Of a stretch of 64,000 nucleotides of DNA, positions 18,782 to 19,567 are shown one piece after another (position 1 is the stretch's first letter; each line of letters starts with the position of its first letter). The translations under genes were made by a program, and so were the position numbers. Source of the DNA: Escherichia coli (GTDB taxonomy: Bacteria; Pseudomonadota; Gammaproteobacteria; Enterobacterales; Enterobacteriaceae); the NCBI RefSeq assembly GCF_048403405.1, contig NZ_CP183129.1; one strand, 5' to 3'. Below the pieces are notes generated by a model, which saw only the letters and a program-made list of their open reading frames with translations, did no database searches and had not been told where the DNA came from.

Positions 18782-18790
18782 GTACATGTT
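18782..18790. repeat. IS1 target-site duplication, left copy (GTACATGTT)
   Basis: Identical 9-mer directly flanks both IS1 ends. Confidence 0.9.
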
Positions 18791-18805
18791 GGTAATGACT
18801 CCAAC

Positions 18806-19309
18806 TTACTGATAGTGTTTTATGTTCAGATAATGCCCGATGACCTTGTCATGCAGCTCCACCGATTTTGAGAACGACAGTGACTTCCGTCCCAGCCTTG
18901 CCAGATGTTGTCTCAGATTCAGGTTATGCCGCTCAATTCGCTGAGTGTAACGCTTGCTGATTACGTGCAGCTTTCCCTTCAGGCGGGATTCATACAGCGG
19001 CCAGCCATCCGTCATCCATACCACGACCTCAAAGGCCGACAGCAGGCTTAGAAGACGCTCCAGTGTGGCCAGAGTGCGTTCACCGAATACGTGCGCAACA
19101 ACCGTCTTCCGGAGCCTGTCATACGCGTAAAACAGCCAGCGCTGGCGCGATTTAGCCCCGACGTATCCCCACTGTTCGTCCATTTCCGCGCAGACGATGA
19201 CGTCACTGCCCGGCTGTATGCGCGAGGTTACCGACTGCGGCCTGAGTTTTTTAAATGGCGGAAAATCGTGTTGAGGCCAACGCCCATAATGCGGGCGGTT
19301 GCCCGGCAT
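18806..19309 (-). CDS. insB: IS1 transposase InsB (expressed as an InsAB' fusion by -1 frameshift)
   Basis: 167-aa ORF recognised as IS1 InsB. Confidence 0.95.
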
Positions 19310-19503
19310 CCAACGCCATTCATGGCCATATCAATGATTTTCTGGTGCGTACCGGGTTGAGAAGCGGTGTAAGTGAACTGCAGTTGCCATGTTTTACGGC
19401 AGTGAGAGCAGAGATAGCGCTGATGTCCGGCGGTGCTTTTGCCGTTACGCACCACCCCGTCAGTAGCTGAACAGGAGGGACAGCTGATAGAAACAGAAGC
19501 CAC
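19228..19503 (-). CDS. insA: IS1 repressor/transposase N-terminal protein InsA
   Basis: 91-aa ORF with zinc-finger cysteines (CPSCSAT…CSHC); recognised as InsA. Confidence 0.95.
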
Positions 19504-19558
19504 TGGAGCACCTCAAAAACACCATCATACACTAAATCAGTAAGTTGGCAGCATCACC

Positions 19559-19567
19559 GTACATGTT
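19559..19567. repeat. IS1 target-site duplication, right copy (GTACATGTT)
   Basis: Identical to 18782-18790. Confidence 0.9.

Follow-up and report, generated by a model that had tools for sequence, protein, structure and literature searches.

A complete IS1 insertion with an exact empty site at the distal edge of the promoter region of a TRAP transporter operon of Escherichia coli

Introduction

The insertion sequence IS1, among the best known in bacteria, is transcribed from a weak promoter of its own that is repressed by InsA, and the element is strongly polar. IS1 and IS5 at bgl represent a case of relieved H-NS-type silencing. A preference of IS1 for AT-rich targets was described by Zerbib et al. 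(1985), as cited in PMC9330008. Fusion promoters formed at IS1 ends have been documented by Prentki et al. (1986) and, according to Table 1 and section 4.2 of PMC9330008, for acrEF and blaTEM. It has also been shown that intramolecular transposition of IS1 generates deletions adjacent to the element (PMC9330008, section 5.2.1), in line with a general pattern of IS-adjacent deletions (PMC11708052). For tripartite TRAP transporters, the substrate-binding proteins with structures 4N15, 4MHF and 4N91 bind D-glucuronate or D-galacturonate and have served as models for the glucuronate-binding protein STM3169 of Salmonella (PMC7660916). A full-text literature search for an E. coli TRAP transporter near yggM found no paper.

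Here we describe an IS1 insertion between hemW and a TRAP operon in the window, by which we mean the whole 64-kb stretch of E. coli DNA that was analysed. The IS1 is an ordinary copy that is already known and annotated in public genomes. The segment 18300-20100 is 100% identical in E. coli strains MS 69-1 and B19695, and only two base differences separate the window from MS 69-1 over 19.8 kb. The RefSeq annotation of MS 69-1 places an 'IS1 family transposase, programmed frameshift' between a 'TRAP transporter substrate-binding protein' and hemW, within the gene order mutY-trmB-yggL-yggN-ansB-yggM, TRAP, IS1, hemW-rdgB-yggU-yggT-yggS. The neighbouring features in the window are as follows.

20851..19715, minus strand: hemW, upstream of the spacer (open reading frame list and RefSeq)
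19687..19712, minus strand: hemW intrinsic terminator hairpin (terminator prediction, minus strand only)
19568..19686, minus strand: AT-rich spacer, 76% A+T, poorly conserved and cut off from the operon by IS1 (alignment and composition)
18623..17637, minus strand: dctP, TRAP substrate-binding protein, intact, 328 aa (TIGR00787, 286 bits)
17601..17089, minus strand: dctQ, TRAP small permease, intact (open reading frame list, RefSeq and NCBIfam)
17089..15788, minus strand: dctM, TRAP large permease, intact (TIGR00786, 472 bits)

All of the TRAP reading frames are intact, and DctP and DctQ are identical at the protein level to those of an IS-free strain. We consider it very probable that a single recent IS1 jump reached the regulatory edge of this operon and left its core promoter in place, with a predicted fusion promoter facing hemW, and that the resident element then seeded deletions in sister genomes.

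The IS1 element and its target site

A complete IS1 of exactly 768 bp (18791-19558) lies between two copies of the 9-mer GTACATGTT.

18782..18790, unstranded: left 9-bp target duplication GTACATGTT, present once in the IS-free allele
18791..19558, minus strand: IS1, insA to insB, matching copies in many E. coli records at 100% identity
18791..18813, unstranded: IRR, the terminal repeat at the insB end, facing dctP, GGTAATGACTCCAACTTACTGAT, matching the other end at 19/23 positions
19309..18806, minus strand: insB frame, 167 aa, overlapping insA and joined to it by a -1 frameshift to yield InsAB' (18806-19503)
19252..19246, minus strand: A6C slippery motif AAAAAAC, at IS1 positions 307-313, read in the insA frame as TTA AAA AAC
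19503..19228, minus strand: insA, 91 aa, GTG start, with a zinc-finger N-terminus (NF050000 and the N-terminal part of NF033558)
19536..19558, unstranded: IRL, the terminal repeat at the insA end, facing hemW, GGTGATGCTGCCAACTTACTGAT on the minus strand (inverted-repeat check)
19559..19567, unstranded: right 9-bp target duplication GTACATGTT, identical to the left copy

The ends of the element are imperfect inverted repeats in which 19 of the first 23 bases match, as determined by a scripted check, and the tips read GGTAATGACTCC... from 18791 and GGTGATGCTGCC... inward from 19558. A -1 shift at the A6C motif gives a 232-aa InsAB' that is uninterrupted by stops. This protein matches the NCBIfam profile NF033558, 'IS1 family transposase', with 246.5 bits (cut-off 100 bits) over profile positions 1-199 of 199, and a profile search places the zinc-binding domain NF050000 at its N-terminus. 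The window copy has every defining feature of IS1 that is open to an in silico test, and the first-pass annotation of an exactly 768-bp element with both repeats, insA, insB and the A6C motif was confirmed in full at 18791-19558.

Among the 5426 complete E. coli genomes, 4970 contain IS1 (median, 11 places per genome). No second IS1 sequence was found in the 64-kb window. The sequence of the window copy is 100% identical to copies on many E. coli chromosomes and plasmids. Going by RefSeq labels, it is approximately 96.5% identical to copies labelled IS1A and approximately 97.3% identical to copies labelled IS1B, and on these values the isoform is different from both, yet common. The same isoform is found elsewhere in the spacer in strains E01 and E03, each time with a 9-bp duplication of its own (CACTAAATA and CAGAAATTA, respectively). 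Since the element is 100% identical to other copies, the same isoform occupies the E01 and E03 sites and the TRAP reading frames are intact, the insertion probably came from an active IS1 isoform and transposition was recent. The identical copies at the E01 and E03 sites, together with deletion derivatives of the window copy in sister genomes, are indirect clues that this copy may be competent for transposition.

The 9-mer GTACATGTT occurs only twice when both strands of the 64-kb window are searched. The duplication stops at 9 bp, the tenth base being different, and the chance of a 9/9 match between the flanks is approximately 1.3e-5 given the local base composition. The empty site was rebuilt by joining 18300-18790 to 19568-20100 (1024 nt). 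The IS-free E. coli strain MRSN346647 is identical to this reconstruction at 1024/1024 positions and carries GTACATGTT once. At a coverage of at least 80% the rebuilt site is present in 1468 of the 5426 genomes, and it occurs at 100% identity in MRSN346647, MLI106K1, TUM14771 and GN02461; in JJ1886 the 314-bp spacer is uninterrupted and the target carries one SNP (GTACATATT). The empty site matches base for base and contains the 9-mer once, which proves that the window IS1 arose by one simple transposition with duplication of 9 bp, and that this genome has not been rearranged here since. The comparison with IS-free alleles that had been proposed earlier gave an exact match in MRSN346647. It bears out both the identity of the flanking 9-mers (18782-18790 and 19559-19567) and the view that they reflect simple transposition without subsequent rearrangement. 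The insertion point lies in the most AT-rich stretch of the hemW-dctP spacer, where stretches of 100-200 bp centred on that point contain 75-80% A+T and fall at the 99.9th percentile of the 64-kb window, and this fits the known target preference of IS1.

The region upstream of dctP

The distance of 168 bp that was first given between IS1 and the start of dctP is correct as a coordinate difference (the ATG is at 18623 and the nearest IS1 base at 18791), with 167 nt intervening, and the element and the operon are indeed co-oriented, insA/insB and the TRAP genes all lying on the minus strand. Conservation of this region was assessed by phylogenetic footprinting of the 320 nt upstream of dctP in 22 taxa and the E. 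coli empty allele (23 in total). The orthologues of dctP, taken from one genome per species and showing 81-93% identity, come from Citrobacter, Kluyvera, Klebsiella, Pseudocitrobacter, Phytobacter, Buttiauxella, Edwardsiella, Mangrovibacter and others. In most of the taxa that carry an orthologue hemW is the upstream neighbour of dctP, and the upstream blocks are kept even in genera in which the neighbour is a different gene. In the 23-taxon alignment every block of at least four conserved positions falls within 18772-18618, on the dctP side of IS1, and positions conserved in at least 75% of taxa number 55 in the proximal 167 nt versus 9 in the distal 119 nt. The following features, all taken from the alignment, are on the minus strand where a strand is given.

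18781..18624, minus strand: retained dctP upstream DNA, containing all blocks conserved across genera (23-taxon alignment)
18772-18766: conserved block CACAAAA
18734-18730: conserved block TGTGA, CRP-like
18716-18705: conserved box GTTGTCAGACAG, consensus TGTCnGACA, operator-like
18693-18681: conserved box TGTCGCACAAAGC, consensus TGTCATACAG, operator-like
18638-18630: ribosome-binding site, conserved

The insertion therefore lies just outside the conserved module, the first block of which begins 10 nt downstream. The two TGTC..ACA boxes, at a distance of 21 bp from each other, resemble a tandem operator. In Klebsiella the TGTGA block lies at a CRP class-II-like distance from a GATAAT hexamer situated between the boxes. 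Roles of these blocks as operator, CRP site and promoter are putative. In E. coli the Klebsiella GATAAT, itself a good -10, is aligned to ACCAAT, and TGTGA is followed by a spacing that is shorter by 2 bp; conservation is therefore a weaker guide to the promoter in E. coli than in the other genera. A complete GTGA-N6-TCACA is present upstream of dctP in distant genera, and TGTGA is conserved. No CRP site scoring at least 7/10 was found in the E. coli dctP upstream region. Control of dctP by CRP may thus be regarded as a lead only. Two further assignments were considered and rejected. An ExuR/UxuR-type operator (AAATTGGTTAACC / ACCAATTT) would involve bases that are not conserved across genera, the conserved boxes being TGTCnGACA and TGTCATACA, and for CACAAAA(T) as a -10 hexamer it is the final T that is not conserved.

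A consensus scan of the minus strand upstream of dctP returned no sigma-70 match of 9/12 or better in either allele, and as a result the E. coli dctP promoter is not readable from sequence alone. The best minus-strand candidates in a laxer scan score 8/12 and occur on either side of the insertion point as well as across it. TAAACA-16-CAAAAT (19569 to 18765) is the one that straddles this point, and two more belong to the distal DNA that was displaced (19635-19608 and 19630-19601), in which a weakly conserved TTCG-N7-CGA-like motif also occurs. The suggestion in the first-pass annotation that the native promoter had been displaced is not supported, since all of the conserved blocks (18772-18618) stay beside dctP; in its favour there are weak 8/12 candidates across and distal to the insertion point. 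The accompanying description of the site as the TRAP operon promoter region is fair as a location, although the insertion is at the distal edge of that region and outside its core. It may nevertheless be that replacement by IS1 of the AT-rich DNA upstream of about -150 has altered the activity of the dctP promoter.

Promoter-like sites at the IS1 junctions

Two promoter-like sites were identified at the hemW-facing end of the element.

19545..19573, plus strand: fusion promoter-like site TTGGCA-17-TATAAT, 11/12, occupied allele only
19524..19551, minus strand: promoter-like site CTGCCA-16-TATGAT within IRL, 9/12, at the position of the insA promoter of IS1

The second of these is presumably the known IRL promoter of IS1. 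In the first, TTGGCA (19545-19550) is contributed by IRL, the spacer consists of 8 nt of IS1 tip and the 9-nt duplication, and TATAAT (19568-19573) is native DNA. At the same place the empty allele has only TTGTGC-17-TATAAT, which scores 9/12 with a -35 of 3/6. The fusion site faces away from dctP, towards the AT-rich spacer, then the hemW terminator hairpin and then the 3' end of hemW in antisense. From its near-consensus hexamers we infer that it may be an active promoter antisense to hemW. At the IRR junction, reading towards dctP, the corresponding sequence is TTGGAG-17-AACCTG and no promoter match was found.

Deletion derivatives in sister genomes and other IS1 events

Six complete genomes share the insertion, and their IS1 and right junction are identical. 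In MS 69-1 and B19695 it is intact and the duplication is present. In Nord58 and TUM1226 the left flank resumes at 18438 and 18392, respectively, and the spacer and the 5' end of dctP have been deleted. The deletion in 4621 and OX030728 has taken dctP, dctQ and most of dctM, so that the left flank starts again only at 16051. All four of these genomes lack the duplication, and their right flank is identical at 2042/2042 positions; apart from the deletions, the flanks do not differ from those of the window. Retention of IS1 and one junction, replacement of the other flank and loss of the duplication are together the signature of IS1 intramolecular transposition. Three independent IS1-adjacent deletions have thus occurred, and they are found in four of the six genomes with the insertion.

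Further IS1 events were placed by mapping fetched loci onto window coordinates. By this mapping, IS1 has entered the 314-bp spacer independently at least six more times in other lineages.

E03: window isoform, plus strand, duplication CAGAAATTA at 18749-18757
E01: window isoform, minus strand, duplication CACTAAATA at 19596-19604
MS 21-1: IS1A-like, plus strand, duplication TTGGTTGAT at 18652-18660
AREA_492 group: IS1B, minus strand, 8-bp duplication CGCCCGCA at 19694-19701, within the hemW terminator
E4 and 582: deletion derivatives with right junctions at 18658 and 19601, respectively

The AREA_492 insertion has itself given rise to a deletion, which in CUVET20-PYO4 reaches 18228. Outside the spacer, the first codons of dctP in DLI.6n are interrupted by an IS1A (18598-18606), and W13-16 carries another at the dctQ/dctM boundary. 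In S1-ISR-02-A, MS 196-1, DLI.6n and CEA106S an IS1A abuts yggM at 15134, and the deletions to its right extend to 17543 or 19718. In every case the DNA lost belongs to TRAP or yggM and the deletion ends at hemW, a pattern that resembles purifying selection acting towards hemW, with little or no such selection towards TRAP.

A 514-bp segment of the spacer is uninterrupted in 1460 genomes and split by a large insertion in 13, while the upstream region of galP, an AT-matched control, is intact in 5422 of 5425 genomes. These few events suggest that the spacer is a preferred or unusually tolerated target of IS1. Another control region (40003-40516) was unusable, as it is a polymorphic junction and only 1791 genomes hold at least 80% of it. 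An IS1 hot spot downstream of hemW in genomes without the TRAP operon was also considered and rejected, the IS1 copies concerned lying inside yggM and not in the hemW-proximal spacer.

Effect of the insertion on the operon

The sequence comparisons show that an IS1 isoform, probably an active one, jumped once and recently into the most AT-rich part of the hemW-dctP spacer of the MS 69-1/B19695 lineage, duplicating GTACATGTT. The landing site is the distal edge of the TRAP regulatory region, so placed that the presumed operator, activator and ribosome-binding blocks stay with dctP. Because all of these conserved blocks are still attached to the gene, the core promoter has probably been kept and the operon is probably expressed under its normal control. 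Loss of the upstream AT-rich DNA would bring about at most a quantitative change in expression. The main consequence that the comparisons demonstrate is structural, the resident IS1 having seeded the adjacent deletions of dctP, or of dctP-dctQ-dctM, in the sister genomes.

The opposite possibility is that the insertion silences or weakens the operon, because a distal promoter or an activating or curved stretch of AT-rich DNA has been cut off, or through the polarity of IS1. The weak promoter-like candidates distal to the insertion (19635-19608 and 19630-19601) or across it (19569 to 18765) could be taken in this sense, as could the TTCG-N7-CGA-like motif of the displaced DNA and the fact that 4/6 genomes sharing the insertion carry deletions into the operon. 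A silenced operon would be dispensable, and this would explain the deletions in relatives. However, the strongly conserved upstream blocks are all retained beside dctP, and the TRAP reading frames in the window are intact and identical or nearly identical to those of IS-free alleles. Furthermore, TRAP deletions are also seen where IS1 sits elsewhere, for instance in yggM or in the hemW terminator, and deletion therefore does not depend on the particular insertion of the window. For these reasons we regard silencing as rather unlikely.

Activation of the operon, whether by read-through from the insA promoter, by an outward promoter in IRR or by disruption of an H-NS-type silencing of the AT-rich spacer, is less probable again. 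It would be helped by the co-orientation of IS1 and operon, by the lack of any intrinsic terminator-like hairpin found on the minus strand inside IS1, by the 76% A+T content of the displaced DNA and by the activation of other genes by IS1 that is documented in Table 1 of PMC9330008. The IRR junction, however, forms no fusion promoter (TTGGAG-17-AACCTG), and the sole strong promoter-like site at a junction faces the opposite way. The weakness and InsA repression of the IS1 promoter and the polarity of the element likewise count against activation, and the fact that this lineage has lost the operon more than once speaks against a gain of function under selection. A quite different view would be that there was no simple insertion, the element being chimeric, a recombinant of two copies of IS1 or an artefact of assembly, and the 9-mers a coincidence. 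With a median of 11 IS1 copies per genome recombination is possible in principle, although no actual support for it was found. The exact empty site exists in another genome, a 9/9 match by chance has a probability of about 1e-5, the same structure occurs in the independently assembled complete genomes MS 69-1 and B19695, and gene order is conserved on both sides (yggM-TRAP and hemW-rdgB). This view is effectively refuted. A single jump that left the core promoter with dctP thus remains the reading that we favour by a long way.

The TRAP transporter and its loss

Only approximately 27% of complete E. coli genomes keep the TRAP operon, approximately 73% being without it. The synteny of hemW and TRAP is conserved in Citrobacter, Kluyvera, Klebsiella and others. 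As hemW is upstream in most taxa, the hemW-TRAP arrangement is ancestral and its absence from approximately 73% of E. coli represents loss. The closest relatives of DctP with solved structures are 4OVR, 4N15, 4MHF/4MIJ and 4N91 (E values of 4e-68 to 4e-60), among which 4N15 (Bamb_6123), 4MHF (Bpro_3107) and 4N91 (Apre_1383) give 1e-66 to 4e-60. Since these last three bind D-glucuronate or D-galacturonate, a hexuronate-type substrate for DctP is a reasonable inference.

The three deletions and at least six other hits in the spacer suggest that the operon is being eroded in E. coli. A broader reading, which we hold only tentatively and think somewhat doubtful, is that IS1 repeatedly targets the spacer as well as one specific site in yggM, and that IS1-seeded deletions amount to an ongoing convergent loss, possibly selected, in several E. 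coli lineages of an ancestral, Enterobacteriaceae-wide and probably hexuronate-type TRAP transporter. If this were so, the window would represent the intact first step of that convergent loss. Recurrent IS1-driven erosion of an operon is in itself a modest side-finding and nothing new in kind. What the locus does offer is a clean, datable first step of IS-driven gene loss, in which the intact insertion, its exact empty site and three sister deletions are all available. The value added here lies in that exact empty site, in the predicted outward fusion promoter towards hemW and in the series of deletion derivatives. A practical point for work on the transporter is that strains of the MS 69-1 lineage differ in whether the operon is intact.

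Comparison with known systems

Structurally there is no difference between the window IS1 and the IS1 known from E. coli and Shigella. The imperfect repeats of approximately 23 bp starting from GGT, insA/insB', the A6C motif, the 9-bp duplication and the AT-rich target are all present in the window copy. As in known IS1 fusion promoters, the predicted fusion site combines an outward -35-like hexamer in the tip of the element with a -10 in the flank at a spacing of 17 nt; unlike the acrEF and blaTEM cases, it faces away from the adjacent operon and no gene is placed for activation. IS1-mediated adjacent deletions are seen in the relatives, and the window itself has the undeleted ancestral state. 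The transporter resembles the hexuronate-type TRAP systems, such as Salmonella STM3169-3171, in its tripartite dctPQM organisation and similar substrate-binding proteins, whereas in contrast to the stm3169 locus of Salmonella the E. coli operon sits downstream of hemW.

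Recurrent IS1 insertion between hemW and dctP

The IS1 insertion studied here is not the only one to have entered the 314 bp spacer between hemW and dctP (window 18624-18790 plus 19568-19714). Among loci from other genomes placed on window coordinates (L-numbers), at least six more independent insertions, all belonging to other E. coli lineages, were found here (L004, L008, L011, L015, L017 and L018); the IS1 isoforms differ, both orientations occur, and each insertion has its own duplication or junction. The spacer is split in 13 genomes and intact in 1460. Of 5425 genomes, 5422 have an intact copy of an AT-matched control region that lies upstream of galP. 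In strain AREA_492 (L008) an IS1B lies within the stem of the hemW terminator hairpin, at the equivalent of window 19694-19701, and is flanked by a duplication of 8 bp rather than 9 bp (CGCCCGCA). Strain CUVET20-PYO4 carries a deletion derivative of this AREA_492 insertion.

Over 19.8 kb the window and strain MS 69-1 differ at only two positions, 11529 and 16638, the latter within dctM; at both the window has G and MS 69-1 has A. On this near-identity the window belongs to the immediate clone of MS 69-1, without matching its RefSeq record exactly. Elsewhere in the window, a prohibitin-family gene and cmtB are separated by an AT-rich spacer (40003-40516) that is a polymorphic junction, at least 80% of it being found in one piece in only 1791 of 5401 genomes.

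Putative promoter and regulatory sequences

At the hemW-facing end of the element, the tip of the IS1 terminal inverted repeat (IRL) and the 9 bp duplication together make up a candidate fusion promoter, TTGGCA-17-TATAAT (19545-19573, plus strand), a near-consensus match at 11 of 12 positions. This is directed away from the TRAP operon and would be antisense to hemW, entering the gene at its 3' end; in that direction no terminator was predicted at the hemW hairpin. Upstream of dctP the following motifs are conserved:

18772-18766, minus strand, CACAAAA block
18734-18730, minus strand, TGTGA
18716-18681, minus strand, two boxes 21 bp apart, TGTC(n)GACA / TGTCATACA-like

The CACAAAA block is contained in a full CRP-like GTGA-N6-TCACA in Mangrovibacter, Edwardsiella and Buttiauxella. 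The putative -10 is ACCAAT in E. coli and GATAAT in the other genera, and in E. coli the gap that follows TGTGA is 2 bp shorter.

IS1-adjacent deletions and a second target

The window's IS1 and its right junction are also present in Nord58 (L009), TUM1226 (L010), 4621 (L012) and OX030728 (L019). In these four genomes the target duplication is gone and the left flank is deleted to one of three different end points within dctP or dctM (window equivalents 18438, 18392 and 16051). They represent three independent IS1-adjacent deletions within one lineage.

Insertion has also recurred in yggM. The 9-mer CAAAACGAA (about 15126-15134) forms the junction of a minus-orientation IS1A, with deletions, in the S1-ISR-02-A group, and in the TRAP-less PSJ-36 it is a clean target duplication around a plus-orientation IS1B. 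Use of the same 9-mer by both isoforms suggests a site-specific hot spot; the loci with IS1 at this position are L006, L007, L005, L014 and L068. A second yggM site, AACAGAACG, is common to PK8276, RM9088 and LR-31.

Synteny and loss of the TRAP operon

A DctP with 99-100% identity to that of E. coli was also seen on short contigs assigned to a Collinsella sp. MAG, a Bacillota bacterium MAG and an Alicyclobacillaceae isolate (L021, L022 and L062), most likely reflecting E. coli contamination or mis-binning.

The hemW-dctPQM order (window 15788-20851) is kept in Citrobacter, Kluyvera, Klebsiella, Pseudocitrobacter, Phytobacter and others (L024-L058). Given this conservation across genera, the operon is ancestral at its hemW-adjacent position, and the complete E. 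coli genomes without it, roughly 73%, have lost it. Where E. coli lacks the operon, the sequence becomes homologous to the window again at the hemW 3' end (19715) or, in some genomes, just inside it (19743/19746). In CEA106S (L014) an IS1-adjacent deletion ends 3 nt into hemW (19718 equivalent), removing the stop codon; the reading frame continues into the IS1 end and the gene is annotated at 1161 nt rather than 1137 nt.
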